Notes: a model not told the origin generated them from the sequence alone. DNA of 64,000 bases from an uncultured Gammaproteobacteria bacterium (GCA_964566225.1 CAZMHV010000004.1:64248-128247); one strand, 5' to 3'; positions 1 to 64,000 are shown, counted from the first letter of the stretch. Made by a program: numbers and translations.

Positions 1-2
1 CG

Positions 3-113
3 CTCGAAGAGCTCGCCAAGAACGCCGGCCCGGACGCCCCCGCCGTCCGGAACCTCATCAACGACGTCAAGGTGACCGCGGAGAAGGTCGCCATGAAGGC
101 CGCCGGGCTCTGA
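3..113 (+). CDS. C-terminal fragment of a CDS running in from upstream (…LEELAKNAGPDAPAVRNLINDVKVTAEKVAMKAAGL*). It is possibly the AAA+ partner of the downstream vWA gene.
   Basis: Open frame 3 runs to a TGA at 111-113. A GGAGGAG RBS and the ATG of the next gene follow 18 nt later. GC3 is high. By analogy with the AAA+ then vWA order at 45.8-43.1 kb. Confidence 0.3.
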   Translation, partial: LEELAKNAGPDAPAVRNLINDVKVTAEKVAMKAAGL

Positions 114-131
114 ACCCGAGCGAGGAGGAGA

Positions 132-1820
132 ATGAGCAAGACGCAAAATGCTCCTCCGCTCGCCCGGGAGGAGCTGCTCTCAGCGATGGTCACGGACGCG
201 GATGCCTTCACCGCGCTCCGGTACCTCCGCTCGCGGGAAGAAACGCCCGCGATTTGGGAGCTTGAACGAAACGGCGCGAAGACATTGCCCGGCGTGACTG
301 CCGCTTTGGGTGACGTCTACCACTCCCTCTGGTCCGAAGGGGTGGATTTGAAGGATCGGACCAAGGTTCCCGCAAGTCGTCAGTACTGGCGTGGACTCCT
401 GGAAGAAACGCTCCCCACGAGCGCCTTCCACGAGCTCCATGCCAAGACCTGCGGGGACCGGCTGCTCTCCACCATGGGCACGGTGGAAGCGGCGAAGACA
501 ATTCTCAAGTTGGTGCCCAAGGCGGACGGCGAGAAGCTCGAGAAGATTGCTGAGGCGCAAGCCAAGGCAGATCAACTCGAGCAGGAAGCCTCGGACGCTC
601 AAGCTCACGCCGACGGCCTGGAGCAGATGGCCTCAGAAATGATGGCCAATGCCCAGGGTGGCGGCAAGCCCGGGAAGCCTGCTGGTGGGAACCCTTCGGG
701 GAACTCGCCGGGTGGTAACTCGGGCGGAATGAGCGCGGCCGAGGCACAGAACCTCGCCAATAAGCTCTCCGAGCAGTGGGCCGATGCGCAGGCAAAGGCT
801 GACGATGCTCGGGCCGCGGCCGACCAGGCGACGGCCGCAGCCAATGCTCAGGCCGAAGCGCTGATGGGGAAACCCGGAAGTGCCGAGGCCGAAGCCAAGC
901 TGCGTGAGCTGGCGAGGTTGGGCCAAGCGGCTCTCCAGGCCACCACTGCGAAGGTCACCGAGGTTTCGGAGACCATTCAAGGCTGGGGTCTGGAAAAAGG
1001 CGAGCTCGAGAAGATGGAGATCCCCGAGGCCATGGGGCTCCTCGAGAAGATGCGGAAGAACTCCGCCTTCAAGAGCTTCGCCACCCTCCTCGGTCGGATG
1101 CGTGCCATGGCCGCCAAAAAGGCACGCTCCAAGATCGAGGGTGAAGGGCGCCGGGTGACTCGCCAGGAAACTGGTCGAGATATCTCGCGCGCCTACCCGA
1201 GCGAGCTCGCCGCGCTCTCTCACCCCGCCACCCGCCTGCCGGCGCTCCTCCGATGGTCTCGAGGAGAGCTCCGGCTTCGTGGCCAAGAGACCAAGCAGAC
1301 GCTCGGCCGTGGAGACATTGTCGTCTGTGAAGACGGCTCGGGCTCCATGGATGGACCGAAGCAGCAGTGGGCCAAGGGAGTTTCACTCTCCCTGGCACAC
1401 TTTGCTAAGATCCAAAAGCGCGGCTTTGGCTGGATCATGTTCGACACCCGTGTGGTGAAGGATAAGGTTCGGCCGGGCGGCGTTCTGTCGGCAATCGACA
1501 TGCTCGATATTGCTGACAGCCGGTCGGGCGGAGGAACCAGCTTCGAAGCGCCGCTGAAGCGCGCTGTCGAGATGATCAAGGCGAAAGGTCTGAAGAAGGC
1601 CGACATCGTCTTTGTCACTGACGGCGAGTGCGCGGTCTCCGAAGCGTTCCTCGAGTGCTTCCTCGCCGCCAAAAAGGCGCTCGAGTTCACGGTCGTCACG
1701 GTTCTGTGCGACGTGGGTGAGAGCGCTCGAAAGACGGTCGAGAAGTTTTCCGACAAGGTCGAGCAAGTCTCGCAGTTCACGGTAGAAACTGCAGAGGCGA
1801 AGGTGTTCAATCACCTCTAG
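132..1820 (+). CDS. vWA-domain protein, CobT-like architecture. It has an N-terminal domain, an acidic/coiled low-complexity middle, and a C-terminal von Willebrand A domain with a MIDAS motif (DGSGSM…GGGT…TDG).
   Basis: A GGAGGAG RBS lies 4 nt upstream of the ATG. The vWA MIDAS motif DxSxS (VVCEDGSGSMDG), the T (GGGTSF) and a late D (FVTDGE) are present. GC3 is high. It is a paralogue of the 43095..44504 protein. Confidence 0.65.
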   Translation: MSKTQNAPPLAREELLSAMVTDADAFTALRYLRSREETPAIWELERNGAKTLPGVTAALGDVYHSLWSEGVDLKDRTKVPASRQYWRGLLEETLPTSAFHELHAKTCGDRLLSTMGTVEAAKTILKLVPKADGEKLEKIAEAQAKADQLEQEASDAQAHADGLEQMASEMMANAQGGGKPGKPAGGNPSGNSPGGNSGGMSAAEAQNLANKLSEQWADAQAKADDARAAADQATAAANAQAEALMGKPGSAEAEAKLRELARLGQAALQATTAKVTEVSETIQGWGLEKGELEKMEIPEAMGLLEKMRKNSAFKSFATLLGRMRAMAAKKARSKIEGEGRRVTRQETGRDISRAYPSELAALSHPATRLPALLRWSRGELRLRGQETKQTLGRGDIVVCEDGSGSMDGPKQQWAKGVSLSLAHFAKIQKRGFGWIMFDTRVVKDKVRPGGVLSAIDMLDIADSRSGGGTSFEAPLKRAVEMIKAKGLKKADIVFVTDGECAVSEAFLECFLAAKKALEFTVVTVLCDVGESARKTVEKFSDKVEQVSQFTVETAEAKVFNHL

Positions 1821-2030
1821 AGCTCGTACTCCTACCCAGTTCCCAGCAGTTGGCATCGCTGGTTGAGCTGTCCAACAAACCGCCACGAGGATTCGTAGTG
1901 ACCTCAAAACAAAATTTCACTGCATTGCACTTGGCCCGTCTAGCACATTGACGGGGCCAATCTTATCCTCACGAGCAATGGTGTTCGCGGGGAAAAGGTT
2001 TGGTTCAACCTCGAAAGTGGAGAAATAATC

Positions 2031-4037
2031 GTGGATACCAACAACATCAACCCCGCGTCGAATATTGTCACGCTCCTGGCCGAGCGTGGCAAGAATTACG
2101 ACAAGACGGGCGAGGTGGTGGGTTTCCACTTCCTCTCTCGGAAGAAGTCCTGCTTGGTCTTCTTCCCGCGGGGTATCAAATGCGAAGCAGGGAAGGAGTA
2201 CCGGATGGAGCTCCTTCCCATTGTCGAGCAAGGCGGCCAGGCCAAGCTCGATCGGGCTGGGAACCCGCTGTACAACTCCCGTCCATCCCCGCCGGTCGTG
2301 TCGGAGAAGTGGATCGAGGAGGGGGGCAACCTCCTTCACGTCCGCATCTCCACCGACTGGCGGCTCGAGGCGAAGCGGGTGGCGCTCCTCGAGACCAAGA
2401 AGCCTGCCACCCGCGAGAGGGAGCTCTACACCGACAAAAAGTATGAGTTGGTGTGGGGCACAGACCTGTTGTCGTCGGCGGTCATGGTCAAGCCCGAGAC
2501 TGTGGTTGCCCTGGAAGTGGAGGCCACGGACAATGGTGAGCTCGTTTGGAAAAAGATCAGCGAGCGTCGAGACTCCAAGCCCACGAGCAACTACTCTCTG
2601 GAGAAGTACAACCTCCGGGAGAATGAGAGCTCGTGGACCTGGAAGCGGATCGACATCACCCACGACCCCGCGGGCACGGTCTCGCTTCACCTGTACTTTG
2701 ATGAAGGCTTGGGCTACACGTCCGAGCACCATCACCGTACGGTGTGGGGCGACCTCCCCAAGTGGCTCAAGGACGAGCTTTTGGTGAATTACCCGATCTG
2801 CTCTTGCTCCCGCCAGCGGCTCGATCCCTCCAAGAATGCCGACGGATACTCGAAGTGCGAGATCTGTCGGACCGAGGAGAAGTGCGCCCGCTGTGGCAAG
2901 CAGCCCATCGCGGTGAAGGTGGTGAATAACTGCCTCATCTGCGATAGCTGCCGACCGCTCGTCGAGCAGGAGAACCTCATCCACGAGAAGGTGTCGGCCG
3001 AGAAGTTGGCCGAGCTGGCGGCCCAGGCCCAGCTCCTCCTCACAGGCAAAGTGTTCGAGGGGGAGACGGGCGAAATGGTGGCACGGACGTTGGTCGAGCA
3101 GCTCAAGGACGAGTCTGCTCGGCGTGAGGCTCTGCGGGTATGTGCCGGGTACCCCTGGTACTATATTTCGCAGGACTTCATCTTCGGGTCCAAGTTTGGG
3201 CTCGAAGCTCTGGAGATTCTGTGCCACATCAACCAGGCCAAGGGCAATGGCCTGGTGCGACTGGTCTCGTGGGTGATGGGCTACCATAAGACCACTGATC
3301 AGGACGGGGACTTCTACACCCGCACCCAGGTCAAGGGCGAGGCTCTGGCTCCGGAGATTTCTTCCTGGAGCACGTTCAGCGACCTGGCGGTCGGCGTCTG
3401 CATCTTCGACTTCGCCACTACTCGGCGGCGAGAAGAAGAACAGCGTCAGGCCGAGGCTGCCGAAAGGTCTCGCCTTGAGAAGCTGCTCGTCCATGACTAC
3501 GTTCGTGGCGACCTCGTGCTCGCCACCCGGATCGACGCCTTTGTCAAAGAGGCATTCCGGATCCGTGGTCACCATACCGTGGCTCTCCTCAAGAAAGAAG
3601 ATGGGGAAGCCTACGGACGTGGTGGTCGCACTGCGTCCATCGAGGAACAGTTCCCTGGCATCGACCACCAGGGGTTGGACTGGGCCGCAGGCCGGGATAT
3701 CGTTCCCGTGGCCTTCTGGGCTGAGACCAGCCTCTTTGGTCAGGTCAAGGTGATCGTTCCGACCGAGGGAAAGTTCACGTTCAAGACCGACCGGCACTTT
3801 CAGTGCACGGGGTGCGGTTGCATCGTGAATGTCGCGAAGCCTGACTGGAACATGTTCCGCAACGGGAACTCCATCAAGGTTTCGTGTCCTTCGTGTTATC
3901 GGTGGGACTGGGTGGATTCGTCCATCCAGAAGTCGCAGACCAAGCTCGAGGCGCCGAAGCCGGCTGTCACCAATAACGGTGGAAGCGTTACGGCTGATGC
4001 GTTGGCCGCCCTCAAGGCCAAGTTCGGCGGCCGCTGA
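2031..4037 (+). CDS. Hypothetical 668-aa protein with two Cys-rich zinc-ribbon-like clusters (CSCSRQ…CEICRTEEKCARCGKQ…CLICDSC and CTGCGC…CPSCYRW).
   Basis: Long ORF with strong GC3 bias and diverse amino-acid composition. The overlapping 725-aa minus-strand ORF is R/L/G-rich, as expected for an antisense frame. Confidence 0.55.
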   Translation: MDTNNINPASNIVTLLAERGKNYDKTGEVVGFHFLSRKKSCLVFFPRGIKCEAGKEYRMELLPIVEQGGQAKLDRAGNPLYNSRPSPPVVSEKWIEEGGNLLHVRISTDWRLEAKRVALLETKKPATRERELYTDKKYELVWGTDLLSSAVMVKPETVVALEVEATDNGELVWKKISERRDSKPTSNYSLEKYNLRENESSWTWKRIDITHDPAGTVSLHLYFDEGLGYTSEHHHRTVWGDLPKWLKDELLVNYPICSCSRQRLDPSKNADGYSKCEICRTEEKCARCGKQPIAVKVVNNCLICDSCRPLVEQENLIHEKVSAEKLAELAAQAQLLLTGKVFEGETGEMVARTLVEQLKDESARREALRVCAGYPWYYISQDFIFGSKFGLEALEILCHINQAKGNGLVRLVSWVMGYHKTTDQDGDFYTRTQVKGEALAPEISSWSTFSDLAVGVCIFDFATTRRREEEQRQAEAAERSRLEKLLVHDYVRGDLVLATRIDAFVKEAFRIRGHHTVALLKKEDGEAYGRGGRTASIEEQFPGIDHQGLDWAAGRDIVPVAFWAETSLFGQVKVIVPTEGKFTFKTDRHFQCTGCGCIVNVAKPDWNMFRNGNSIKVSCPSCYRWDWVDSSIQKSQTKLEAPKPAVTNNGGSVTADALAALKAKFGGR

Positions 4038-4205
4038 GTCTTTGCTATAAAGAAAAATCTTCTTGCCAGAAAAGGCGTGCAAGAAGTCATCCAAAATCGC
4101 CTTTTAAGTTTCGACTGGTTGGCACTGGTCTTGAGACTTTCAAAAGAAACGCCATGGGAGGTAGGTAACTCCCAAGAAAAAACATCTTACCAAAAACTCG
4201 GTAGA

Positions 4206-4280
4206 TCGGGACATCAAGCTTGCACAGCTCTGTCCCGAACTCCCACGAAATTTTTATTGATGTAGAAGTTTCATGGGAGT
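4206..4280 (+). repeat. Hairpin/AT-box module copy 1. An 8-bp inverted repeat (TCGGGACA N17 TGTCCCGA) is followed by ACTCCCACGAAATTTTTATTGATGTAGAAGTTTCATGGGAGT.
   Basis: A near-identical module recurs at 4904-4976. AACTCCC and GGGAGT form a second inverted pair around an AT-rich core. Confidence 0.55.
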
Positions 4281-4401
4281 CAAATCCAAACTATGGGCGG
4301 CTGGCAGCACCCAAAAGTTTTTCTCTCTATCTGCCAGAAACTGTTTGGAAACCATTGCAATAAGCCCCACGAAGAAATTCGACGGAAGTGTGGGGAAGTA
4401 A

Positions 4402-4719
4402 ATGCAGTGGTGGAGGAAAATGACAAAGAATCTCTTTGTTGTCATCTCCCGAGACGTGTGGTACGACAAAAAGACCACAGACTCGGTGATTGTCCACCTC
4501 GTTGAAGAGGGGGACAGTTTCTCCACCGGTGGCGGATCCTATGGCAACGAGTACAGCACGGATGTGTATGTATTTCTTGCCGTCGGTGTTACTGTCACCG
4601 ATGTGAGCGGGACAGACTCCAAGCTCTTTGCTCATCTGCGATCCAAGTTCGACGACTTGGGAGTGGTGAGTAATGAAGAGCTTCTCGAGAACGTGTATGC
4701 GTTCTTGAGAGCTCTTTAA
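4402..4719 (+). CDS. Small hypothetical protein (105 aa).
   Basis: ORF lying between the two hairpin/AT-box modules. Composition is plausible but no motif was recognised. Confidence 0.35.
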   Translation: MQWWRKMTKNLFVVISRDVWYDKKTTDSVIVHLVEEGDSFSTGGGSYGNEYSTDVYVFLAVGVTVTDVSGTDSKLFAHLRSKFDDLGVVSNEELLENVYAFLRAL

Positions 4720-4903
4720 GCGGATAGAGTCTGTTCAGAAGTCCTCCCCAAGGTCTTGAGCAGAGATGAAGGGGAGTGAATAAAGAAAGCGGATCGGCAT
4801 ATGCCGACGGGGTTGGGAGAAAGACCTGACTTTGAGCTGCCAGCAACCGTGCAGCAAGACCGCAAGCTTAGGGTGGTAACCTCAACAACCAAGCAACTCG
4901 GAA

Positions 4904-4976
4904 CTCGGGACAGGGTGAGCACTCATCTGTCCCGAACTCCCTCGAGATTTTTAAATATAAAAGTTTCAAGGGAGTG
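4904..4976 (+). repeat. Hairpin/AT-box module copy 2 (CTCGGGACA N15 TGTCCCGAG, then ACTCCCTCGAGATTTTTAAATATAAAAGTTTCAAGGGAGT).
   Basis: Direct comparison with 4206-4280. It lies 58 nt upstream of the 5034 ATG. Confidence 0.55.
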
Positions 4977-5033
4977 TGAATTTTCTGCTCCAGAGTAGTA
5001 ATAGAAGCAACGAACTCAAGCAAGGACGATACC

Positions 5034-5720
5034 GTGAATACGATGAAAAAGTTCTGGACGATGAAGGATGGTCAGGTTGGCACGGCTCACAAAAACCGCC
5101 ACGGCGAGGAGGTCGACTTCCGGCCGGGGGAGTGTTTTCTTGAGTGGGTTGAAGGAGGCAGCAGCCAACGACCTGGCATGATGAGCGATGTGCCGGACGA
5201 GGAGGCCATCAAGTCTGCGATCTCGCTGTTGCGGGTCGTTCTGGTTCCTGCCAAGGGTGTCCAGTGCGAGAGTCTCGTCCTTCCTTCCACGAGCATCGAC
5301 TACGAGTCGAGCGTGGACAATCGCGGTGTGGTCATGGTGCGAGTCAATCGCATGGTGGCCACCTACGAGGGACTGGAATTTCAGTCTAGCAAAGACAGGC
5401 TGGGCGCAGCGATTCTGGTCAACTTCTACTCCCTCGTCGCCCGCCAGGCCCAGCGACAGGCCGCAGTCGAGCAGCTGGAGCAGCTGCGTCAGCAGCACCC
5501 GGCTGCCACGGCCCTCACCCCGCGTGAGGCCATCACGTTCGGAAAGCCGGTCTTCGCCAAGCTCCGGCATCAGAACCCTCTGGACTGGAAGAAGGCGGCG
5601 GTGAAGGTTCAGCAGAATTTGTTGAGACACTTCGCAATCACCGACATCCGGATCCTCCCGACGTGGGCACAGGACCTCGAGACCCTGCGCAGCCACATCT
5701 TGGAGCAGCGAGTCGGTTGA
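5034..5720 (+). CDS. Hypothetical protein (228 aa).
   Basis: Strong GC3 bias in this frame. The overlapping minus-strand 285-aa ORF has antisense-like composition. Confidence 0.5.
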   Translation: MNTMKKFWTMKDGQVGTAHKNRHGEEVDFRPGECFLEWVEGGSSQRPGMMSDVPDEEAIKSAISLLRVVLVPAKGVQCESLVLPSTSIDYESSVDNRGVVMVRVNRMVATYEGLEFQSSKDRLGAAILVNFYSLVARQAQRQAAVEQLEQLRQQHPAATALTPREAITFGKPVFAKLRHQNPLDWKKAAVKVQQNLLRHFAITDIRILPTWAQDLETLRSHILEQRVG

Positions 5721-5954
5721 TTTTTCCACACTCCCCAAAGCTGTGTTCTTGCCCTCTCCAAAAAAGAGGGCAAGCGCCAGAAGATCCCGGGCATCCTGCC
5801 TGGGTTCCACCTCAATTCTTGAGGCGTACTTCATGGGCGGAGCGTTCAACCCGAACTGCTCCGCCCTCCACACAGAAAGAGAAAATTACAAAAGAGAATC
5901 TTCGAATACTCTCTCCTCGAGGAATCTCCAACATTTTTTTCTCTTTCGGTGTGG

Positions 5955-5995
5955 AATAAAAAATACTGTTTACGCAACAGTATTTTTTGTTTTCA
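5955..5995. terminator. Bidirectional rho-independent terminator (AAAAAATACTGTT-TACGC-AACAGTATTTTTTGTTTT) at the high-GC/low-GC boundary.
   Basis: Perfect 9-bp stem with an A-run 5' and a T-run 3'. Confidence 0.6.
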
Positions 5996-6014
5996 AAATT
6001 TTGTATAAAATAAT

Positions 6015-16140: not shown

Positions 16141-16205
16141 ATTTGAAAATTTTGCAGAGAGAATATATGTATTGTATCTTTTTTTGAGGAGGTGAGCAAA
16201 TATTT

Positions 16206-16240
16206 GGGTAAAAAAAATCCCGAACGAGTCGGGATGATTC
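16206..16240 (-). terminator. Terminator-like hairpin at the left edge of high-GC segment 2. On the minus strand ATCCCGACTCGTTCGGGAT is followed by TTTTTTTT.
   Basis: 7-bp stem followed by T8. It lies downstream of the 74-aa high-GC ORF. Confidence 0.4.
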
Positions 16241-16352
16241 CTCAAAGCCGATGTTTATCGAATCTGAGGAATCGACCGCCGGTGATGCAAGACTTGCGCG
16301 GGATGCGCAGGTCGAGTCAGCGGCGGGGTGAAGGCGTGGCGCCTTCGGTGGA

Positions 16353-16577
16353 CTACGCCCCGACGATGGGGCGGTAGGGCTCGCGGATCGCGCGGCCGTT
16401 GACGCCGGTGAGGGCCTGCTCGGTCTTGGGGTTGACCGCGGTGACCATGATCTCGTCTCCCACTCTAACCGCCTTGAGCTCGAACCGTTCCCCGGTCATG
16501 TTGGCTGCTGCAATCACCGCTGCCTCTGCAGCCTTCTTGGGATTCGGGTGCTTCACAATGTATACCCCCATAAACAT
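16353..16577 (-). CDS. Small high-GC hypothetical protein (74 aa; MGVYIVKHPNPKKAAEAAVIAAAN…).
   Basis: ORF with moderate GC3 bias inside a high-GC segment. No clear RBS. Confidence 0.3.
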   Translation of the reverse strand: MFMGVYIVKHPNPKKAAEAAVIAAANMTGERFELKAVRVGDEIMVTAVNPKTEQALTGVNGRAIREPYRPIVGA

Positions 16578-17072
16578 CCGTTGGTTGCCACGATCCTACC
16601 CACCCTCACTGGCGAGTAGGACCTTTTGGTTTACAACATATGTCATAAAACAAAAAATCCTACCCGCATGGATAAGATAACCTTCGTTTTTCCAATGTAT
16701 ATTGGAAACGTATCTTTCCCTATTCGGGCTGGAGTTACCACCTTGTTTTGACTTTTGACAAGCGCAAAGTAGGTTGGTTGGAGGTCATCGGGCCAGGTCC
16801 CTCGCTCCTTTCTCGATAATAAATTGACAAAATTTAGAGTATCAAAAGTTGCATGTGCTGTCAATATATTTATGCACATGTATTTAAAAAATTGGGGTCA
16901 GAATATTGACAAATTGGCCAAATTTTGATAGCCTCATTTGAGGTATATGTTTTTTCAGAAGGAAAAAGAGCATTTATATTCTTTTTTTCCTCCTGAAAAA
17001 CATCAACCTACAACATTTTGTCATACCAGGGGCACTCAATTTTTGAGTGATGACAAAAGACGGAGAAAATCC

Positions 17073-17840
17073 ATGATCGTTCACGTCGCTGGTGCGAATC
17101 GGGTTCCTCGTACGGAGAATTTTCTCAAGGGTCTTGGCGTCCGCATGGACTTTTTTGCGGACTGGGGGTACCCCGGTATGTACCGGGTCTGTTGCCAGGA
17201 GGATATCCTGCGGCTCGTGTCGCAGGTTGGTCCCAATGATCCGAATCGGTTGGTCCTGGACTTTCACATCCACGGTCTCAATCAATGGTCTCGGCTTCCA
17301 GTGGTGAGTGAGGACCATCGAAAAGTCTTCCTCAACACCTGGCTGCGACCCTATCTGCCCTTGTGGCAGATTGCAGAGAATATCTTGAAGCTGCAGCCCC
17401 CCCGCATCTTGGAGGGGATGCCCAGCATCAAGGTGGTCGCCCGTGAGAAGCCCGAGGAAAATTGGTCGGACGAAAACGTGAAGAATCGACAGAAACAGAA
17501 AAAGGGAAAATCCCTGGTCTGCTGTCCTTCACGCTACGAGTATTCTCTGGTTCTTTCGGACGATTTTCTGGTGAAAGTGCTGCTTCTCATCCCTGTCCGA
17601 GGGTTCCGGCAGGATTTCCACCGGATCATCGAGCTCTTTGAGCAGGGGGTTCTGGACGAGAACCTGACCATCCACGCCCTGCGTGAGCTCATCCTGTGTG
17701 TGCCGCAGGACTGGGATGGTCCACTGATCAAAGACACCTTCTCTCAACTGAAGTGGCCTCCACTCCCAACTGAAGTGGCCTCCACCCCAAGCGGCCAAGT
17801 CCCGGCGACGTCCGTTCCGCCGGACACGGGTCACCCCTGA
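17073..17840 (+). CDS. High-GC hypothetical protein (255 aa).
   Basis: A GGAG RBS lies 7 nt upstream of ATG 17073. GC3 bias is strong. The 3' end contains a 21-bp tandem duplication. Confidence 0.5.
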   Translation: MIVHVAGANRVPRTENFLKGLGVRMDFFADWGYPGMYRVCCQEDILRLVSQVGPNDPNRLVLDFHIHGLNQWSRLPVVSEDHRKVFLNTWLRPYLPLWQIAENILKLQPPRILEGMPSIKVVAREKPEENWSDENVKNRQKQKKGKSLVCCPSRYEYSLVLSDDFLVKVLLLIPVRGFRQDFHRIIELFEQGVLDENLTIHALRELILCVPQDWDGPLIKDTFSQLKWPPLPTEVASTPSGQVPATSVPPDTGHP

Positions 17841-17950
17841 GGAGGGGGGTGAGCCCTGAAAATCGACGAGGGGAATCGGTCTTCCAAGACTGGTTCCCTT
17901 CGTCGACCACTGTGATTTTTGTTGAAATGAAATTTCACTTTAATAAAAAT

Positions 17951-17986
17951 AAAAAAAATCCTGCTGTTGGGCAGGATTTTTTTTGT
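17951..17986. terminator. Bidirectional terminator (AAAAAAAATCCTGC-TGTTGG-GCAGGATTTTTTTTG) shared by the high-GC gene (+) and ahcY (-).
   Basis: Perfect 7-bp stem flanked by A8 and T8. Confidence 0.7.
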
Positions 17987-19399
17987 TTAATATCGGTAGT
18001 GATCTGGTTTGTATGGTCCGTTTTCGTTTACATTGAGGTACGCAGCTTGCGCAGGGGTCAACTTGGTGAGTTTCACCCCAAGTTTTGCGAGGTGCAAACG
18101 TGCCACTTCTTCATCAAGTTCTTTGGCCAGGCGATACACACCAACTTTGTACACATCTTTATTTTTCCACAAATCAATTTGGGCAAGTGTTTGATTACTA
18201 AATGAATTACTCATCACAAAACTTGGGTGGCCCGTGGCACAGCCAAGGTTCATGAGACGTCCTTCAGCCAAGAGGAACATTTCTTTGCCACTTGGAAAAA
18301 TATATTTATCTACTTGAGGTTTAATGTTTACTTTTTGTACACCTTCGGCAGTGTCGAGGCGTTCTACTTGAATTTCGTTATCAAAGTGACCAATGTTACT
18401 TACAATCGCTTGATCTTTCATGCCACTCATGTGTTCAAACGTAATCACATCTTTGTTGCCAGTGGTAGTCACATAAATATCTGCGCGACCGAGTGTATCT
18501 TCAATAGTGGTGACTTCGTATCCTTCCATGGCAGCTTGGAGTGCGCAAATTGGGTCGATTTCTGTGACGATCACGCGGCAGCCTTGGCCTTTGAGTGCTT
18601 GTGCGCAGCCTTTGCCCACGTCTCCGTATCCACACACGACAGCAACTTTTCCACCAATCATCACATCCATGGCACGGTTGAGTCCGTCCACAATTGAGTG
18701 ACGGCAACCATAGATGTTATCAAATTTACTTTTGGTAACAGAGTCGTTTACGTTGATGGCAGGGAAGAGCAATTTGCCTTCGTTCATCATTTGGTACAAG
18801 CGGTGCACACCTGTAGTTGTTTCTTCACTCACACCACGAACATTTTTGGCAACAGCAGTCCAACGAGTTGGATTTTCACTGTAGGTACGTGCAAGGAGTT
18901 TCATGAGTTCTTGGTAGTCTTTGCCTTCTTTGGAATAATCTGCAGTAAGCAAACTTGGATTTTCTTCTACTTCTTTTCCTTTGTGAATAAGCAGTGTAGA
19001 ATCTCCACCATCGTCTACAATGAGGTCTGGGCCTGTGCCATTGCCAAAGTCCAAGGCTTTTTCAGTACACCACCAGTATTCTTCAAGCGTTTCACCTTTC
19101 CATGCAAATACAGGAATTCCCGCAGCAGCAATAGCCGCCGCAGCATGGTCTTGGGTAGAAAAAATATTACAACTTACCCAGCGAACAGTGGCGCCAAGAG
19201 CGGCGAGGGTTTCAATGAGCACGGCTGTCTGAATGGTCATGTGGAGACTGCCCATGATTTTGACGCCCTGGAGAGGTTTTTCGGCAGCATATTTATTGCG
19301 AATCGACATGAGTCCTGGCATTTCGTCTTCGGCAATTTCAATTTCTTTGCGGCCCCAATCTGCGAGGGTAATATCTTTTACTTTGAAGTCTTGACTCAT
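17987..19399 (-). CDS. ahcY: S-adenosyl-L-homocysteine hydrolase (adenosylhomocysteinase).
   Basis: Full-length 470 aa with conserved AhcY blocks ([19 protein letters not shown]-binding [16 protein letters not shown]). Confidence 0.95.
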
Positions 19400-19710
19400 A
19401 AGAGAATGAAAAAATATGAAAATTACGTTGTGAGTAAATCAGCAGAAAGGCTGATAGTGGTTCATAGTATACTGTGATTTTTTCATTTGGACAAGAGGTA
19501 AAAAAAATTTTTTATCGAAAAATATAGGCCTGTACAAAGCAAAATTTATGTGAAACAGTGCATAAGTACCTTGACGAAGATGCAAGAAGGTACTATACTG
19601 AGTGATTGTTGTCAAAATCACATGAGTGGGAAAAAGGCTTTGTAAAAGTTTTTTTCCCGGGCATGTGTCCAGCGAGGGGCTGGCAATACTGCGCGGGCGG
19701 GAGCAATGAC

Positions 19711-19965
19711 ATGAGTCATAAGGTTCGCGTGGAGCTGTTTCCGGGGTTGACCCTTACCGGTCATCCCCATTGGCTGATGATCCTCCTTTTCGGGGGAGGT
19801 CACCAGTTCGTCGGCTCGGCCGAGGCGAACATCGCCGAGGCTCCCCGCCAGATGGTGGAGGTCGTCCACGGGCTGCAGCGCCCGTCGGTGGCCTGCACCA
19901 CCCTGTCGTTCACCACGACCGCTCGTGGCGGCATCAAGCGCCGCCTCCGTTCGAGTCGCTGCTGA
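19711..19965 (+). CDS. Small high-GC hypothetical protein (84 aa) in high-GC segment 3.
   Basis: A GGGAG RBS lies 7 nt upstream of the ATG. GC3 bias is strong in this frame only. Confidence 0.3.
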   Translation: MSHKVRVELFPGLTLTGHPHWLMILLFGGGHQFVGSAEANIAEAPRQMVEVVHGLQRPSVACTTLSFTTTARGGIKRRLRSSRC

Positions 19966-20095
19966 ACGACCACCTCGCCGAGTGAGGTGACTACCGAGCA
20001 ATCGGTCTGTCACATCTGCACTCTGCGATCGGTGAGGGCGTCGTGCTATGGGTTACCCCCAAGCACGGCGCCCTCACCAAAAAGTAAAATATTTC

Positions 20096-20131
20096 AAAAC
20101 AGTCCTAGCTTTTTGCAGGACTGTTTTTTTG
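20096..20131. terminator. Terminator at the right edge of high-GC segment 3 (ACAGTCCT-AGCTTTTTGC-AGGACTGTTTTTTTG).
   Basis: 8-bp stem plus T7. Confidence 0.6.
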
Positions 20132-40070: not shown

Positions 40071-40144
40071 AGGGCCCGTAGTTTAATGGTAGAACACTAT
40101 CATGCGAAGGTAGGGGCACGGGTTCGATTCCCGTCGGGTCCACC
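40071..40144 (+). tRNA. tRNA-Arg, anticodon GCG, with encoded CCA.
   Basis: Hand-folded cloverleaf. Acceptor GGGCCCG/CGGGUCC, D-arm GUUU…GAAC with GG, anticodon stem CUAUC/GGUAG with loop AUGCGAA, T-arm ACGGG-UUCGAUU-CCCGU, and a 3' ACCA. Confidence 0.85.
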
Positions 40145-40457
40145 ACCCAAAGCAATCTTGTAAACACAAGGTTGTTTTTGTTTAGAAAGAATTTCTCCCC
40201 TTCACAAACTTCAACGAATTGAAATTTCTGCAGGGTTGGCGAGTGAGTGCTTCTCTCTCGCCGACCGGTGCGTTTGGCTTCTCGCCGTGGAGGATACTGC
40301 TTCCTCTTGGCTCACCACTTTGTTCTTTTGGAACATGCAGGTGACTCATACCTTGATTTTCAGCATAGGATTTTGTGCTGAGTGAAACCCGTGAGTGGCA
40401 GCTTGTCCCGAGACCTTGTCGGTCTCTGAGTGGGATGTTACCAGGTTTCTGTGTGGT

Positions 40458-41420: not shown

Positions 41421-41573
41421 CTTTTTTTCTCGACATGCCGGGGAACTGCCGGTGCAGTCGAAGCGTGCGTCTCAATTGCATTGCTTCGATCTCTTTTGCA
41501 AAAAAATTTGTAACAGAGATCGAAGGGGAAGGTGCATTTCCCTTCGAGTGCTTTGGCTCCTCATAGGAGCAGG

Positions 41574-44504: not shown

Positions 44505-44738
44505 CTTGGTCTCCTCCCGCTTGCGCGGATTTTCTAGTTGAGTTTCTCGAAGCGTTTGCTTCGACCTTTATTTCAAACTTTTTTGTTTGATATACAGGTC
44601 GAAGGGTGAGCGTTGTGCATACTCACCTTCCAGTGCTTGCTCCTCGTAGGAACTTGGTTGATTTTACCAACCGTCAATGCCCATAGAGCCGGGATCAGCT
44701 TTCCAGGATTCAAGCCTTACCTGGAATGGCTTTCTTTT

Positions 44739-45840
44739 CTACAGGCGGGTGTGCTTGAGGCTGAGCTTCTGAGCCTCGGCCGACTTCTGGGAAGCAGCCT
44801 CCCGGAGCTGCTTGCGCTTTTCCGTGAGACCATCCGTGACCTTGAGATTGGCCACCTTGTCCTGGAAGGAGAGGAGCCGCAAAGCCGCCTGGTTGCACTT
44901 GACCGGACTCTGCGTCCGATCAGCCGCCTCGAGGTCAGAGAGCAAGCTGTTCAGCTCGCCCTCAGCCTCAACCAGCAACACCTCGGCCGTCGCCCGCTCG
45001 CTCGCCTTGTCGAGCTCGGTTTTCAGGTTCTCGGCCAAAGCCTCGAACCCATCGACGAACTTGAGGTCAAGGAGATCGACCTTCTCGACCTTGGCCGAAC
45101 CGCGCAGCGCTGCAGAGGTCTTGACGACTCCAAGCGCGTGCACGGCCGACCGCGGCGAGATGGGCCGCCCCTGCTCGGCGAGCTTGCCGAGCATCTCGGC
45201 GAGCACCGAGCTCATCCCGTTGAGGTCGGCTCCCGGCAAGCGGGGCGCGACCTTCACGAACAGCTCGCTGTAATCGGCCGCCTTATAGGACGGCCATTTC
45301 ACATTGAGTTGAATCGGGAATCGCTCGATCAGGGCGTGCGCAGCGGGGCCGAGCTCGCTGATTTCCGCTGGGTCTTTGTTGGTGAGGGCGATGATGACCT
45401 TCGTCTTCATCGCGAACACCTGTGACCCCTTTCGGAGCTTGCGGGCGGTCAGCGTGTCCTTGAGCGCGAGGAGAACCGACGCCGGAGCGTCAAAGAGCTC
45501 CTCGAACACCGCGTAGGGTCGCGCGAGGAAGCTCAGCTCCGGGAAGTACCGGAGCACCTTCTCGGTCTCGAGCGCCCGGAAGTCGAGGCCGCCCCAGAGG
45601 GTAGCCTCGTCCATTCCCTCCCCGAAGCTCTGAACGTGGACCTCGTTATCGAGGTCCGTGACGATCTCGGCCAGAGCGGTCTCTATCATCTCGGACTTCC
45701 CGTGCCCCCCGGGTCCCCAGAGGAGCACGTTTTTGCCCGACGTGATTGCCAGAGCAAGGACCCGGGCCAGGTCCTCACACTTGATGAAATCCCGCTCGAG
45801 GCGAGACTTCAACTTGTCGAAGAGATTAGTAACCACGCAA
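44739..45840 (-). CDS. MoxR/CobS-like AAA+ ATPase (AAA_5 type).
   Basis: Walker A LLWGPGGHGKS, Walker B/sensor VIIALTN, and arginine-finger region. GTG start 45840 with a GGAGG RBS 6 nt upstream. The longer ATG-initiated extension is probably not translated. Confidence 0.7.
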
Positions 45841-46008
45841 ACCTCCGTAGCGCGATTGTTGCGCCTTGGATTGGGCTTGCCCTGGGGAGGGCAAAGCACG
45901 TTTGTGTTTCTCCTCCCGCAGAGCAAAGCCCTGGTTTGGGTCCCCATTTCTATTTTTTTTCAAAAATAGTCAGGGAACCCAAACAGTTGCGTAATGACCT
46001 AATATTAA

Positions 46009-46126
46009 ACGCACGTCTTGGTAAACCTGCGCTTGCCAAAGAAAATAATATTTTTATTCACTTTGGCAATATTCAATTGTAAGGATCTTCACTCTCTACA
46101 CCACATTCATTAGGCTGCTGTAACAT
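46009..46126 (+). repeat. 118-bp direct repeat, copy 2 (identical to 39625-39742).
   Basis: Exact identity. Confidence 0.9.
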
Positions 46127-46906
46127 TTTTTACTCAATTTTTCTTTGGAGTCTTGTGAGGCTCAAAATACTTGTGAGTTCAAAACTTTCTTGTTGTAGTA
46201 GCGACTGCCTTTCCCTCTATACAATCTTGCGACTGTTTAAAGAGAAGGCGCACTCGGTACTACTCTCGTTCTGAGGCGAGTGTAGACTGACCGCGAGGGA
46301 GTTGCTGCTCGACTTTCGTCAAGGGCATCTATCAACCTCCGCCGGTTCTCTTAGTCCGGTCGGATGACCGGATCAAGAGCAATATCTTACCCGGTCATTC
46401 GACCGGGCAAGGGTTCAGAATTGAAAATTTCTTTCACCGATAGGAGTCTCTCTCCTTCACATTGGTCAAAGAAATTAGTTCATTGTAATGGTTTGGGGAC
46501 TCAACCTTTTTGCACCCTGTCTCGCTCAACTCTCTCTCTTGAGGGCAAAGCAGGTATTGTTTAAAAAGGGAATCGTGCAAACCGTTTAGTCCTAGACCCT
46601 TCCCAAAGGCAAGCATCGCTTTGGTACTTTTGATCAAGGTCTAAACGTTTTGCGCGAAAGTGTAAAAAACGCTCTTTCTGGTGAGAGAGCGTTTGAGTTT
46701 GGTAACTCTATCTGGGGCTCTCTCTTTCCTTTGATAGTTCAAGTGTTTGAGTTGTGGTTACCTGTTCTTGGTCTTTCAGCGTAACGAGCTAGTATAACAT
46801 AAAATCACAAATATGTCAATACTGAACCATGCATATACAAAATATATATATTAAATTTATCTAAATTTAGCTAAATATATAAAAACTCAATATGTAAAAT
46901 AACCAC

Positions 46907-46935: not shown

Positions 46936-46958
46936 ACATGTACAATAAGCCAAAAAAT

Positions 46959-54223: not shown

Positions 54224-54391
54224 GTTTTTTCTATTATACAGTATCTTTTACTCAATTGACAAAATAGAGAATTATTTTGAATAAAAAAAATCCTCTTGGA
54301 GAGGGTGAGTTTGTAGAGTAGGCGACGGGTTGAGAGGGTGCCCGAGAACGCCGAAGCGTCACATCAGAGCACCCTCTTGCCATCTTGGGAG

Positions 54392-55096
54392 TCAGTCGAG
54401 CTGAGCCGACCACGTCCCAAAGTATGGACTTTGTGGGTCATCGACGACCGGATCGTCTTGCGGCGGTCCTTCGTCGATGCTGTGGGTACAGGTTCCCGGC
54501 GGGAGTACGCCCCATGCCAGGGCGTCATTTACCACCAGGGTTACCTCACACTCTGCACCCTCGTTGGCGGGGTACCACATGCCGAGGAAAATCTCTTGGC
54601 TCTGTGGATCCACGTACTCCCCCAAAGCGCCCACACTGTGGTGCTTTTGGGTCTGACACTGAACCCAGAGGTGCAGTGAGGAAACATCGCCCTCGAGGGG
54701 GGTGTTTCCTCTCTGCCAGTGGAACACCACTCGCGAGAGTTGCACCTCGGGGATCGGTGAGGCTGCCGCGTCAGGGAGGGGTACGTCCTCGGTCGCATCC
54801 GGAGCTGCGTCCGGGGGGGTGGGGAAGTAGGCATCCGGGATACCCACGTCCGCGACCTGTTCGGCCATGTCCGGCTGGGCCGCCGCGTCAACCACGGGGT
54901 GAACGTCTGCGGGGGTGGCGTCGATGACCGCGTCCACCTCCGCATCCTCGACCAGTCGGACCATGTCCGGGTCGGCGTCTGCCGTGGTGAAGGCCGGGCC
55001 TCCCGCGGACTCGGCGATCTTGCCCGACAACACGGTCGGGTCGCAGCCGAGGAGGATGCCGACGACGAAGAAAACACCAAAAATCTTGATTCCCAT
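54392..55096 (-). CDS. High-GC putative lipoprotein (signal peptide plus lipobox LLGC). It is acidic and Pro/Asp/Ala-rich.
   Basis: An AGGAGA RBS lies 6 nt upstream of ATG 55096. The lipobox VGILLGCD is present. GC3 bias is strong. The upstream extension of the ORF is not supported. Confidence 0.5.
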   Translation of the reverse strand: MGIKIFGVFFVVGILLGCDPTVLSGKIAESAGGPAFTTADADPDMVRLVEDAEVDAVIDATPADVHPVVDAAAQPDMAEQVADVGIPDAYFPTPPDAAPDATEDVPLPDAAASPIPEVQLSRVVFHWQRGNTPLEGDVSSLHLWVQCQTQKHHSVGALGEYVDPQSQEIFLGMWYPANEGAECEVTLVVNDALAWGVLPPGTCTHSIDEGPPQDDPVVDDPQSPYFGTWSAQLD

Positions 55097-55347
55097 TGGG
55101 GATCTCCTGGGGGGGTGCGGGGTTATATATACCGCATGTAGGGGCAAAATTGCCCAGTGTAGAGGGGGATTTCCTCTTTCAAAAGTAAGAAATATCTTTC
55201 TTTTGAAACAAAAAATACCCAAAATAATGAACAGGAGAGAATATACCAAATAGGACGTTTTGTCAAGGGGGTTATTACACAAATAAAAAAAGAGTCCTGT
55301 TGCAAGGACTTTTTGTTTTTATGAGTTGGATATTTGGGGAGTCTACT

Positions 55348-61447: not shown

Positions 61448-62863
61448 ATGGGTATTATGAATCTTTCACGCGTGAGACAATTGAATCAAGGATCATTTGA
61501 AAAGGGGACGGTTGTGTACTGGATGGACCGAGATCTGCGACTTCGCGATAATTGGGCACTTTTATTTGCCGATGCTTTGGCACGGAAACACCACCAACCC
61601 CTCGTCGTGGTATATAATTTTGTGCCCAATTTTTTGGGTGGGGCAGAAAGACATGTGCGTTTTAAAATGGAGGCACTCGCTTTGTTGCAGTCTGACGCAC
61701 TTGAAAAAAACATTTCTTTCTTTGTACTGGTTGATGAATCTGGCACAGAAACTCCTAAACATATTGTAGACTTTTGTGAACAAGCAGATGCTGGTGCCCT
61801 TGTTACAGATTTTTCTCCTCTCAAAATTCAGCGAAAGTGGAAAGAGCAAATTACCAAAAAAATTAATATTCCATTTTTTGAAGTGGATGCGCACAATATT
61901 GTGCCAGCCTGGCAAGCTTCACCCAAACAAGAATTTGGTGCCTATACACTGCGGCCCAAACTGCACAAAAAACTTCCTGAATTTTTGGAAGCATTTCCTG
62001 TGCTCCAAAAACAAAAAATTTCTTTTCATAAAAAAATAAAACAACAGAGTTTAACTCCATACAAAAAAATAGCAACACAAGCGGATGATATTTTTTTGAA
62101 AGGGGGAGAAGAGGCTGCTCACACACAGCTGCGAATATTTTTGAAAGAAAAACTGTCACTCTATGCACGCGATCGCAATGATCCTCTTGCTCTTGCGCAA
62201 TCCAATCTTTCTGCGTACTTGCACTATGGCATGATAAGTGCACAGGCTGTGGTACTTGAGACTTTGCGTGTTTCCAAATTTTCTCTATCACAGGTAACAA
62301 CACCCAAAAAAAATAATGCCGCGAGTGAAATCAAAACTCCGGGACTGAAAGAAAGTGTCGCTGCGTTTTTGGAAGAGTTAATTATTCGCCGAGAACTGGC
62401 AGATAATTTTTGTTTGTACAATACAAATTACGATAGTGTAGAAGGATTTCCTGCTTGGGCCGAGAAAACACTCAATGCCCATCGCAAAGATAAACGTGAA
62501 TATGTGTATACCAAAAAACAATTTGAACAGGCTCTCACGCACGATGAACTGTGGAATGCAGCACAAAGAGAAATGGTGCGTACCGGTAAAATGCACGGGT
62601 ATATGCGTATGTACTGGGCCAAGAAAATTTTGGAGTGGACATCAAGTCCAGAAGAAGCCATGAAAATTGCCGTTTTTCTCAATGATACCTATGAGCTTGA
62701 TGGACGTGATCCAAATGGCTATGCAGGGATTGCTTGGAGCATTGGAGGGGTGCATGATCGAGCCTGGTTTGAACGACCTGTGTACGGACAAATTCGTTAC
62801 ATGGCACGCAGTGGATGTGAAAAAAAGTTTGATGTCAAAAAATATATTGAAAAATTTTCATAA
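61448..62863 (+). CDS. phr: Deoxyribodipyrimidine photolyase (class II-like).
   Basis: N-terminal VVYWMDRDLRLRDNWAL and a C-terminal FAD-binding helical domain (MHGYMRMYWAKKILEW). An alternative upstream ATG lies at 61367. Confidence 0.8.
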   Translation: MGIMNLSRVRQLNQGSFEKGTVVYWMDRDLRLRDNWALLFADALARKHHQPLVVVYNFVPNFLGGAERHVRFKMEALALLQSDALEKNISFFVLVDESGTETPKHIVDFCEQADAGALVTDFSPLKIQRKWKEQITKKINIPFFEVDAHNIVPAWQASPKQEFGAYTLRPKLHKKLPEFLEAFPVLQKQKISFHKKIKQQSLTPYKKIATQADDIFLKGGEEAAHTQLRIFLKEKLSLYARDRNDPLALAQSNLSAYLHYGMISAQAVVLETLRVSKFSLSQVTTPKKNNAASEIKTPGLKESVAAFLEELIIRRELADNFCLYNTNYDSVEGFPAWAEKTLNAHRKDKREYVYTKKQFEQALTHDELWNAAQREMVRTGKMHGYMRMYWAKKILEWTSSPEEAMKIAVFLNDTYELDGRDPNGYAGIAWSIGGVHDRAWFERPVYGQIRYMARSGCEKKFDVKKYIEKFS

Positions 62864-62897
62864 AAAAAGTACAGAGAAAATCTGTACTTTTTTGTGC
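62864..62897. terminator. Bidirectional terminator (AAAAAAAGTACAGA-GAAAAT-CTGTACTTTTTTTG).
   Basis: Perfect 7-bp stem flanked by A7 and T7. Confidence 0.65.
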
Positions 62898-62953
62898 CAC
62901 CACCACAGGCAAAATTGTCTGCGCTGGTGGCACCCTCCTTGTGCCTCCCTTGG

Positions 62954-63134
62954 TCAGTCCGGAATGCGGGACCGACCACCCTTCTGTTTCGCGCGTGGGT
63001 CTTTGCGCGGATTGGGGTTGCGAACCCCCTTCTTCCCACGGGAAAGGAGCTCTGGGTCGAAGAAGTCCTCGACCCCGGCGGTTGTTTGTTGTGCGTGATC
63101 GGGCAGCTGTCCGACCTCACGAATACTTGACATG
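62954..63134 (-). CDS. Small high-GC hypothetical basic protein (MSSIREV…KKGVRNPNPRKDPRAKQKGGRSRIPD).
   Basis: ORF inside a 250-bp high-GC patch. It shares a (K/R)xPNP(K/R)K motif with the 16353..16577 ORF. It is weak. Confidence 0.2.
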
Positions 63135-63210
63135 TTCTTCCCCACTGAAGTGAACCTCCAGTCTACATTACCCTTGAAAATATGTCAATCCAGTGATATT
63201 CTAGTGACAC

Positions 63211-64000
63211 TATGAAAGAGTTTCGAACACAATTTGAGCTGGCATTGCAGCAGTGGTTTGCCCAAAAAAGACACTCGTTACCTGCTGCGGTACAACAGGA
63301 TACTGTCTTTGGGGAACTGTTTACTGCGGTTGAAGCCCTTTCACTTTCTGGAGGCAAAAGAATTCGTCCATCACTCATGTGGCTTTTGTCAGGTTTTTCA
63401 CTTCCACTTTCTGAGCAGCAACTTCGTCCGTTTCTTGCCATGGAGTTGTTTCATGTGTTTGGCCTTATTCACGATGATATTATTGATAACGGTGAATCTC
63501 GTCGTGGTGTACCAACCACCCATGTTGTGGCAGAAAAAATTTTTGATACACACCATAAACTTGGACTTCGCAAAAAATATGGAGAATCCATGGCACTACT
63601 TATGGGAGATTTATTGTTTGCATGGGTTCATGAATTGCTGGATACTGCAGGTCTTGCCCCAGATATTTTACAGAGGGTAAAGCACATGTTTACCCGTATG
63701 AGTGAAGATGTAATGATTGGTCAACTTATTGATGTTGATATCATGAGCAGTGAAAGTACCTCGAGTGATCGTATTTTTGAAAAAATGAAATTGAAAACCG
63801 CAAGTTATACTTTTGTGTGGCCCATGCAGCTCGGACTCGCGCTTGGCAATGCAGAGGGTCTTTTGTTTGAAGAGTCCGCTGCTTGTGGCGAAGCATTGGG
63901 CATTGCGTTTCAAATTCAAGATGATATTTTGGATGCTCTTGGAGATGAAGCTTCACTCGGCAAAACACCGATGCGAGATATTACCGAAGGGCAGCATACC
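63211..64000 (+). CDS. Polyprenyl (geranylgeranyl/farnesyl) diphosphate synthase, 3'-truncated by the window edge.
   Basis: FARM (LIHDDIID) and SARM (FQIQDDILD) motifs. A TTGAAA-N17-TATTCT promoter-like element lies upstream. Confidence 0.8.

Follow-up and report, generated by a model that had tools for sequence, protein, structure and literature searches.

The 64-kb window analysed here, part of a 164-kb NCBI contig (CAZMHV010000004.1, positions 64248-128247), carries a series of high-GC islands set into a chromosomal backbone of much lower GC content. To judge from its genes, the backbone is a syntenic chromosome of the ultra-small Patescibacteria (Candidate Phyla Radiation, CPR) of about 40% GC, like those of Moranbacteria and Magasanikbacteria. 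Its cellular genes include FtsH, thioredoxin reductase, RpiB, Rpe, PfkB kinases, AdoHcyase, NUDIX and DsbA, together with a tRNA methyltransferase, ABC/MacB transporters, a DEAD helicase and a photolyase. AdoHcyase finds its best genome matches, at 75-77% identity, in metagenome-assembled genomes (MAGs) of Moranbacteria, Magasanikbacteria and Parcubacteria, and the gene order tRNA-methyltransferase, DsbA, PfkB, AdoHcyase, NUDIX is kept in those genomes and at 71 metagenome loci. Two sister genomes, L093 (SRR21524769) and L165 (SRR24319170), have AdoHcyase genes with 85% nucleotide identity to that of the window. The islands, numbered 1 to 6, and their genes are listed in Table 1.

The window has an overall GC content of 44.2% and contains no N. 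Ten to fourteen GC-rich blocks of 53-63% GC total 15.25 kb, or 24% of the window, while backbone windows of 500 nt average 39.7% GC (sd 3.5), not the roughly 35% given by an earlier reading of this DNA that used the sequence alone (the sequence-only reading). The standard deviation of 500-nt GC is 0.081 against a binomial expectation of 0.022. Measured between adjoining 150-nt windows, the GC change at island edges is 0.18-0.38, and every edge except the right one of island 4a (0.18) reaches at least 0.22; the same measure within the backbone has a 99th percentile of 0.187 and a maximum of 0.273. The GC mosaic that the sequence-only reading described is confirmed. The six segments it listed are placed correctly, though 1, 2 and 4 are each a composite broken by AT-rich stretches: 4100-4450, 16625-17026, 39525-40350, where a tRNA gene lies, and 42275-43050. 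Host-style terminators do coincide with the edges, as it had noted, and were read at seven sites.

Table 1. Features of the window (aa, amino acids; ORF, open reading frame; GC3, GC content at third codon positions; SD, Shine-Dalgarno)
Feature	Position	Strand	Details
High-GC run	1-4100		60.8% GC
High-GC run	4451-5925		55% GC
High-GC run	16201-16625		60% GC
High-GC run	17026-17950		54% GC
High-GC run	19626-20125		60% GC
High-GC run	37726-39525		53% GC
High-GC run	40351-42275		57% GC
High-GC run	43051-45950		59% GC
High-GC run	54276-55175		61% GC
High-GC run	62876-63175		56% GC
A-run/hairpin/T-run terminators at edges	~5960-5995, 16217-16235, 17951-17984, 20098-20125, 54292-54304, 55293-55310, ~62860-62895
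Island 1, 3' end of GC-rich ORF off window start	1-110	+	frame 3 open to stop at ~110
Island 1, VWA-domain protein, 562 aa, ViaA/CoxE-like	132-1820	+	motif DGSGSM; Pfam VWA_2, VWA_CoxE; GC3 0.75
Island 1, Cys-rich orphan, 668 aa	2031-4037	+	GC3 0.80
Island 1, ORF, 105 aa	4402-4719	+	GC3 0.63
Island 1, orphan, 228 aa	5034-5720	+	GC3 0.77
Island 2a, orphan ORF, 72 aa	16353-16571	-	GC at codon positions 1/2/3 0.63/0.43/0.81; GC-rich tail, terminator 16217-16235
Island 2a, regulatory part	16640-16885	-	recipient-type promoter, SAM-I riboswitch (16707-16822), terminator (16657-16678)
Island 2b, orphan, 255 aa	17073-17840	+	SD GGAG 17062-17065; bidirectional terminator 17951-17984
Slot-3 promoter and leader	19571-19700	+	TTGACG-17-TATACT (19571-19599); ~100-nt two-hairpin leader
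Island 3, orphan ORF, 84 aa	19711-19965	+	16-bp GC hairpin 20031-20078; T-run terminator 20098-20125
Island 4a, orphan, 165 aa	37806-38303	-	gene call on Logan contig L088
Island 4a, orphan with Cys motifs, 258 aa	38385-39161	-	gene call on L088
Island 4a, orphan, 97 aa	39158-39451	-	gene call on L088
Direct repeat D1, left copy, 198 nt	39625-39822		37% GC; 9-bp palindrome, minus-strand promoter-like site upstream of 4a
tRNA-Arg, anticodon GCG	40072-40145	+	AT-rich gap between 4a and 4b
Island 4b, protein, 320 aa	40458-41420	-	GC3 0.74
Island 4b, protein, 222 aa	41574-42242	-	GC3 0.74
Island 4b, VWA protein, 469 aa	43095-44504	-	motif DGSGSM; Pfam VWA_2/VWA_CoxE above cut-off
Island 4b, MoxR-type AAA+ ATPase, 402 aa	44739-45947	-	Pfam bpMoxR 1e-11, AAA_5
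Direct repeat D1, right copy, 198 nt	46009-46206		directly upstream of MoxR gene
Island 5, lipoprotein, 234 aa	54392-55096	-	signal peptide, lipobox LLGC; SD AGGAG
Island 5, signals		-	promoter 55266-55238, GC hairpin 54333-54377, terminator 54304-54292
Island 6, orphan ORF, 59 aa	62954-63133	-	TTGACA promoter ~63186; hairpin 62894-62933; terminator ~62860-62895
Logan coverage	1643-4067		island 1 interior
Logan coverage	4843-22866		spans island 1 right edge and all of islands 2 and 3
Logan coverage	28006-39622		spans island 4a left edge
Logan coverage	40321-46038		island 4b only
Logan coverage	48635-55455		spans both edges of island 5

The islands share one foreign signature. GC3 is 0.63-0.83 in island ORFs and 0.21-0.44 in backbone ORFs, so the codon bias proposed by the sequence-only reading holds. 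Lysine is encoded by AAG in 79% of cases in the islands against 13% in the backbone, and arginine by CGG in 27% against 3%; Ala, Gly, Arg and Leu are more frequent in island proteins, Lys, Ile and Leu in backbone proteins. A Shine-Dalgarno match of at least 4 nt precedes 69% of island genes versus 10% of backbone genes, and the island sites are of the GGAG type, which bears out the proposed contrast between GGAGG-type ribosome-binding sites in the islands and weak ones in the backbone. In composition-normalised tetranucleotide profile, one half of the island set correlates with the other at r 0.91, and a 15-kb backbone chunk with the remaining backbone at 0.93; for islands against backbone the value is 0.72.

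None of the 71 syntenic relatives contains a homologue of an island gene, and GC islands are almost absent from them, so the islands are lineage-specific insertions. Together with the single signature, this supports the high-GC donor that the sequence-only reading invoked. At one relative, L104, the AdoHcyase and NUDIX matches are separated by just 124 nt, and a SAM (S-adenosylmethionine) riboswitch was found in none of the ten closest syntenic loci scanned, L104 included. Since these syntenic relatives, more distant than the sisters, lack the riboswitch, the whole riboswitch unit of island 2a is a lineage-specific gain beside AdoHcyase.

The homologues of island proteins bear on the kind of donor. 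The MoxR/VWA pair of island 4b is 54/46% identical to an adjacent pair on the IMG/VR contig L085 (99 kb, uniformly 63% GC) and 43/33% identical to a pair on L086 (112 kb, 61% GC), which encodes a clamp loader; a scan of IMG/VR with a profile from the VWA alignment returned the same two contigs and otherwise only remote VWA matches. The VWA protein of island 1 matches phrog_24053 at 1e-52; its identity to ORF063 of the Bacillus jumbo phage 0305phi8-36 is about 35%. The 320-aa protein matches phrog_23674, and one of its domains, about 95 aa long, recurs in proteins of jumbo phages of 350-380 kb. For the 668-aa protein a single relative (35% identity) turned up in 5.8 billion proteins; its gene, on L090 (54% GC), also comes after a VWA gene. 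A variant of the island 5 lipoprotein, 89% identical, occurs elsewhere. Among the donors named by the sequence-only reading, phage fits best, as the only homologues lie on uniformly high-GC viral contigs or in jumbo phages. A plasmid origin was rejected, PLSDB being empty for a megablast of 1-6000 and a tblastn with MoxR.

Most island proteins belong to no Pfam, NCBIfam, PHROG or PADLOC family. Those of island 4a match no Pfam family, and ten island proteins gave 0 matches to the PADLOC defence models. In deep protein searches the 668-aa, 297-aa and 72-aa proteins and the 59-aa protein of L093 are essentially orphans; the 297-aa protein, which is the public gene call for the island 2b ORF with a start at 16947, matches only itself among the 5.8 billion. 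An exhaustive HMMER search with the 72-aa protein gave just weak matches to Ig-like repeat proteins, which are probably compositional. IMG/VR scans with the 668-aa, island 1 VWA, 320-aa and 297-aa proteins returned nothing; among INPHARED phages MoxR had no match and the island 1 VWA and 320-aa proteins distant matches only. Predicted structures of the 222-aa and 255-aa proteins have a confidence (pLDDT) of 40-43, too low for use.

Hairpin density provides a further link to the putative donor. Island tiles of 426 nt have a mean folding z of -4.5 (n=20) on both strands, and strong folding is seen also in tiles that lie entirely within MoxR and VWA coding sequence; for the backbone the mean is -1.6, and the means of twelve unrelated high-GC loci run from +0.6 to -2.3. 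Inverted repeats, counted as perfect stems of at least 8 bp with loops of 3-40 nt and compared with a dinucleotide-shuffle expectation, are in 3.8-fold excess in the islands (z 9.1), 1.7-fold in the backbone and 0.75-2.1-fold in unrelated high-GC genomes. The excess is 5.0-fold in the viral contig L085 (z 13.3) and 4.2-fold in L090. The island stems share no motif, and the cassettes of the sister genomes are folded as strongly as the islands. This hairpin excess ties the islands to an L085-type donor lineage. Hairpin-dense stretches can be seen, for example, at 600-1025 and 45000-45425 of the window and at 9700-14100 of L085.

The small islands are built as expression units, and the site of each is called a slot below. 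A unit runs from an AT-rich TTGACA/TATAAT-like promoter through a leader and a GC-rich segment to an AT-rich T-run terminator, the GC-rich segment consisting of an SD site, an ORF and a strong GC hairpin. Nearly every island stops 10-40 nt past such a hairpin, and no common motif was seen at the slot boundaries. The idea that the AT-rich promoters were brought from the donor was rejected, as L085 and L086 have no AT-rich intergenic dips. The gene-cassette pattern of the sequence-only reading stands in that the small segments are single-gene units; an integron-like system is not supported, for there is no integrase, attC site or array, and the units have their own promoters. The SAM-I riboswitch (RF00162) of island 2a is borderline at 44.5 bits versus a gathering threshold of 44.4, and its orthologue in L093 scores 57 bits. 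In island 3 the GC3 phase is constant over 19630-19990.

Comparison with the sister genomes reveals turnover in these slots. The promoter and leader of slot 3 are kept in both L093 and L165; in slot 2a, which L093 alone of the sisters reaches, the promoter, riboswitch, terminator and hairpin are kept. The conserved leaders include TGTAAACCAAAARGTCCT as well as the slot-3 leader. In slots 2a and 3 homology between window and sister stops about 20 nt ahead of the start codon and restarts at the terminator, and the GC-rich ORFs in between are unrelated, with no BLASTP alignment between the L093 and window products (59 vs 84 aa and 76 vs 72 aa). Slot 2b holds an AT-rich Gp49/helix-turn-helix toxin-antitoxin pair in L093 and in a JGI contig. 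L093 and L165 have a slot-3 cassette in common, with a synonymous divergence (dS) of 0.33, a ratio of nonsynonymous to synonymous divergence (dN/dS) of 0.22, which shows purifying selection, and a GC3 of 0.82-0.84. Because of these values and the 89%-identical lipoprotein variant, the cassettes are retained, selected genes whose acquisition need not be very recent. The very recent acquisition that the sequence-only reading suggested is thus too strong a claim: a sister-lineage cassette has been kept through this divergence with its GC3 still high. As a separate observation, the foreign ORF led by the riboswitch differs between sisters (16640-16885 in the window, 3685-3870 in L093).

The account we consider probable is that high-GC genes of phage type were repeatedly acquired at intergenic hotspots of the CPR chromosome and then domesticated under recipient promoters. 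The donor's identity, its route of entry, and the expression and function of its genes are inferred, as follows. At least seven intergenic sites would have received DNA from one high-GC donor class, and between them they hold 15 kb in about ten blocks with 16 or more genes. The donor would most likely be one lineage of large, high-GC, hairpin-rich phages, which possibly infect the high-GC partner of the CPR cell. Entry could have occurred if a competent episymbiont took up DNA while exposed to the phages of its partner, or through mis-injection. The genes would have kept donor codon usage, GGAG sites, GC-rich 3' hairpins and hairpin-rich sequence, while transcription would start at AT-rich sigma-70-type promoters and stop at recipient-type A/T-run terminators, one gene lying behind a SAM-I riboswitch. 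The sites behave as hotspots, at which sisters hold other GC-rich ORFs or the AT-rich toxin-antitoxin pair. The retained genes would be functional accessory genes rather than junk, namely a chaperone-like MoxR-VWA pair, another VWA module, a lipoprotein and small orphans.

Several points weigh against this account. The closest relatives of island proteins are only 33-54% identical, no donor genome was found, and homologues exist for just 4 of the roughly 16 island proteins. That L085 and L086 are viral is based on their IMG/VR label, one clamp-loader match and many orphan genes. No integrase, transposase, recombinase, reverse transcriptase or virion gene was found in the window, Pfam having given no integrase or recombinase match among about 60 ORFs, and D1 is the only att-type repeat seen. 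The island-backbone tetranucleotide correlation of 0.72 equals the best value for an unrelated locus (L007, 0.72) and exceeds all others; partial amelioration, or a constraint common to both, could be the reason. The junctions of island 6, and those of the block formed by the tRNA gene and island 4b, are not independently bridged. Finally, the account leaves the precise placement of foreign ORFs behind a recipient promoter and leader without explanation.

The donor could instead be the high-GC bacterium with which the CPR cell is partnered, whose chromosomal or plasmid DNA would be taken up and integrated piecemeal. MoxR-VWA pairs are common in cellular genomes, and r reaches 0.76-0.85 when the pooled island signature is set against several unrelated loci of high-GC bacteria. 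CPR bacteria are also known recipients of horizontal gene transfer from other phyla (PMC12455944). We nevertheless regard a partner donor as unlikely: nearly all island proteins are orphans among the 5.8 billion, which is typical of phage and not of cellular genes, the informative matches are only to viral contigs and jumbo phages, and no island holds a housekeeping-type gene.

A different view is that the CPR lineage keeps fixed expression slots, each made of a promoter and a structured leader and once including a SAM riboswitch, in which promoterless units (5' untranslated region, ORF and terminal hairpin) of a hairpin-dense high-GC phage lineage are captured and exchanged again and again. 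The process would do without an integrase, and hairpins would guide or protect it, as when hairpin-ended single-stranded DNA survives uptake. This we hold to be quite unlikely; if true, the genome would preserve in its islands a first-hand trace of the phages and hosts that surround an uncultured episymbiont. A dedicated machinery that inserts such promoterless units into fixed slots, integron-like yet without IntI or attC and possibly working on hairpin-ended single-stranded DNA or cDNA, would account for the homology breaks in slots 2a and 3, with unrelated but equally GC-rich ORFs between them, for the ends of nearly all islands just past a GC hairpin and for the hairpin density of donor-type DNA. 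It is decidedly unlikely, as the window has no recombinase or reverse transcriptase, the slot edges no common motif, slot 2b takes an AT-rich toxin-antitoxin pair in relatives like an ordinary hotspot, and the comparison covers two slots in two lineages only.

It is very improbable that the small islands are structured non-coding RNAs, or native genes raised in GC in situ by biased gene conversion or hypermutation. Such a view could draw on strongly negative folding z values (-9.0 for the segment 3 transcript, -6.6 and -4.8 for the L093 cassettes), on the promoter and terminator that each unit has, and on positions kept in the sister genome. Equal z values are found, however, in the coding sequences of MoxR and VWA, proteins with clear homologues, and these homologues lie on uniformly GC-rich viral contigs. 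The small ORFs show strong codon periodicity, with GC3 far above GC at second positions, and have SD motifs and, in the lipoprotein, a signal peptide; dN/dS in the cassette shared by L093 and L165 is 0.22; Rfam gave no known non-coding RNA within the islands even at E 0.5.

Island junctions were checked in per-run Logan assemblies of SRR16481186 and SRR16481187, using contigs 100% identical to the window (Table 1). L087 spans the right edge of island 1, L088 the left edge of island 4a (near 37751) and L089 both edges of island 5. Where junctions are bridged in this way, the mosaic is real biology and not assembly error. Logan contigs end at both sides of island 4b and inside island 1, and L083 terminates within the right copy of the direct repeat D1, whose two copies are identical over their first 118 nt and bracket tRNA-Arg and island 4b. 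The breaks around island 4b coincide with this exact repeat, which a k=31 graph cannot cross, and because contigs break in D1 the block of tRNA-Arg and island 4b is not independently bridged. Around island 4b, with R the repeat, the order A-R-B-R-C has an alternative in principle, A-R-C with a separate circle B-R; the assembly graph at D1 also fits a 6.4-kb circle or tandem element. Fusion of another organism's high-GC contigs to a CPR contig during assembly or binning could draw on the contig ends at island 4b and inside island 1, but is hardly credible, since most outer GC junctions (among them both edges of islands 2, 3 and 5) lie within single contigs of separate per-run assemblies, the breaks around 4b fall on the 118-nt repeat, the window has no N, and sisters from other runs have the same architecture. 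The sequence-only reading had left a chimeric or engineered assembly open, and the recovery of most junctions at 100% identity speaks against it, as does the like interleaving at the same loci in the sisters, which come from other samples.

Genomic islands and horizontal gene transfer are already documented in groundwater Patescibacteria, where islands make up at most 13% of genome length (PMC12455944). The window resembles them in having DNA of foreign composition between syntenic core genes, one cluster beside a tRNA, and content that varies among relatives. It differs in the extreme GC3 contrast (about 0.75 vs 0.3), in the many tiny single-gene units without an integrase, in the recipient promoter and terminator given to each gene, and in extent (24% of the region against at most 13% of the genome). 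The integrase and tRNA-derived att repeats of a tRNA-integrated island or prophage are absent from the window. Nor does it look like a prophage, as in the 64 kb of the 164-kb contig that the window covers PHROGs and Pfam give only VWA, ATPase and unknown-function families and no virion, terminase or lysis genes.

Phage morons, described by Hendrix and colleagues in lambdoid prophages, are reportedly autonomous promoter-gene-terminator units of deviant composition. Islands 2a, 3, 5 and 6 likewise place single genes between a sigma-70 promoter and an intrinsic terminator, with a composition unlike that of their neighbours. Here, in contrast, the units stand among housekeeping genes in CPR synteny on a cellular chromosome and not in a prophage, and only the 5' untranslated region, coding sequence and 3' hairpin deviate, the promoter and terminator matching the recipient. 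Integron cassettes are similar in being short, mostly one-ORF units that end in a hairpin element and in the swappable content of their site. The units of the window differ in being dispersed over 64 kb with their own promoter-like sites, with no IntI, attI, attC core or array; their 3' hairpins are near-perfect GC stems without AAC/GTT cores and do not fit the attC pattern RYYYAAC...GTTRRRY.

The MoxR-VWA gene pair also has known counterparts. As in the RavA-ViaA and other MoxR-VWA pairs, including those of the archaeal virus ATV and phage 0305phi8-36, a MoxR-class AAA+ gene adjoins a VWA gene with a DxSxS metal ion-dependent adhesion site (MIDAS) motif, and the phage homologues have the same gene order as the window pair. 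The window sequences are very divergent, however, and score far below the curated NCBIfam equivalog cut-offs for RavA and ViaA.

What is new here is the form: the extreme contrast, the many single-gene units, the precise wiring to recipient promoters, the slot turnover and the hairpin signature. Genomic islands do not as a rule have ORFs placed precisely behind recipient promoters (once behind a riboswitch), slot turnover or a donor hairpin excess. Very few partners of CPR bacteria have been identified, and a coherent set of phage-type high-GC genes is a usable tracer of the high-GC phage or host community that a CPR cell meets. The window also shows that a streamlined genome can hold on to numerous foreign orphan genes and rewire them.

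Islands 4a and 4b flank tRNA-Arg, so that adjacency to a tRNA and deviant composition coincide here as in genomic islands. The tRNA is probably native. The possibility that it is an island-borne tRNA serving GC-rich codons was rejected, since the backbone is itself heavy in CGT and CGC, which make up 59% of its arginine codons. A tRNA-derived att site was rejected as well, as no second tRNA 3' end occurs in the window within 3 mismatches. D1 is AT-rich, non-tRNA DNA, and with its palindrome and promoter-like site it heads each of the two operons of island 4. Upstream of tRNA-Arg, at 39871-39990, a strong promoter-like site, TTGACA-17-TAAAGT with a TG element, is followed about 50 nt on by a 14-bp hairpin and T-run; the element may produce a very short transcript or act as an attenuator. 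Within island 4b, the 850 nt at 42243-43094 are 46% GC and have no public gene call; their sole ORF (42426-42791, 121 aa, GC3 0.44) has no family.

Island 1 continues upstream of the window, since a GC-rich ORF crosses the window start; the GC content of 1-500 is 0.646. Its right end lies at a change point near 5876, past a GC hairpin at 5835-5866 and ahead of the terminator. Two copies of a direct repeat of about 60 nt, the intergenic hairpin element D7 (4222-4280 and 4919-4975), precede two consecutive genes, the first of which is the 105-aa ORF. D7 comprises a hairpin CGGGACA...TGTCCCG followed by AACTCCC.CGA.ATTTTTA and GGGAGT, and the motif has no exact match in IMG/VR.

Two small islands show finer detail. 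On the minus strand at 16240-16352 of island 2a, in-frame GC3 periodicity runs on past the TAG stop of the 72-aa ORF and a later TGA, which suggests that this cassette is a fragment, truncated or interrupted by stops, of a gene that was longer in the donor. The slot-3 leader (19607-19700) consists of an A-run/U-run hairpin and a second hairpin with a G-rich loop. Across three sequences the second hairpin has compensatory changes between genomes, CCAGC/GCTGG versus TGCGG/CCGCA, and the leader could be a cis-regulatory RNA.

Further observations concern the backbone and its relatives. Nearly all backbone genes are without a Shine-Dalgarno site (for example at 46938, 17987-19399 and 10991). At some, such as that at 46938, a TATAAT-like box lies a few nucleotides upstream of the ATG, a position that suggests leaderless or SD-independent initiation in this organism. 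L007 (RFSE01000063.1), a MAG of 61% GC under the label Proteobacteria, encodes an AdoHcyase with 77% identity to that of the CPR, which points either to gene transfer or to mis-binning. L096 (Ga0076004_103) is a relative with the same gene order at 55% GC, and GC content therefore varies widely within this CPR clade.

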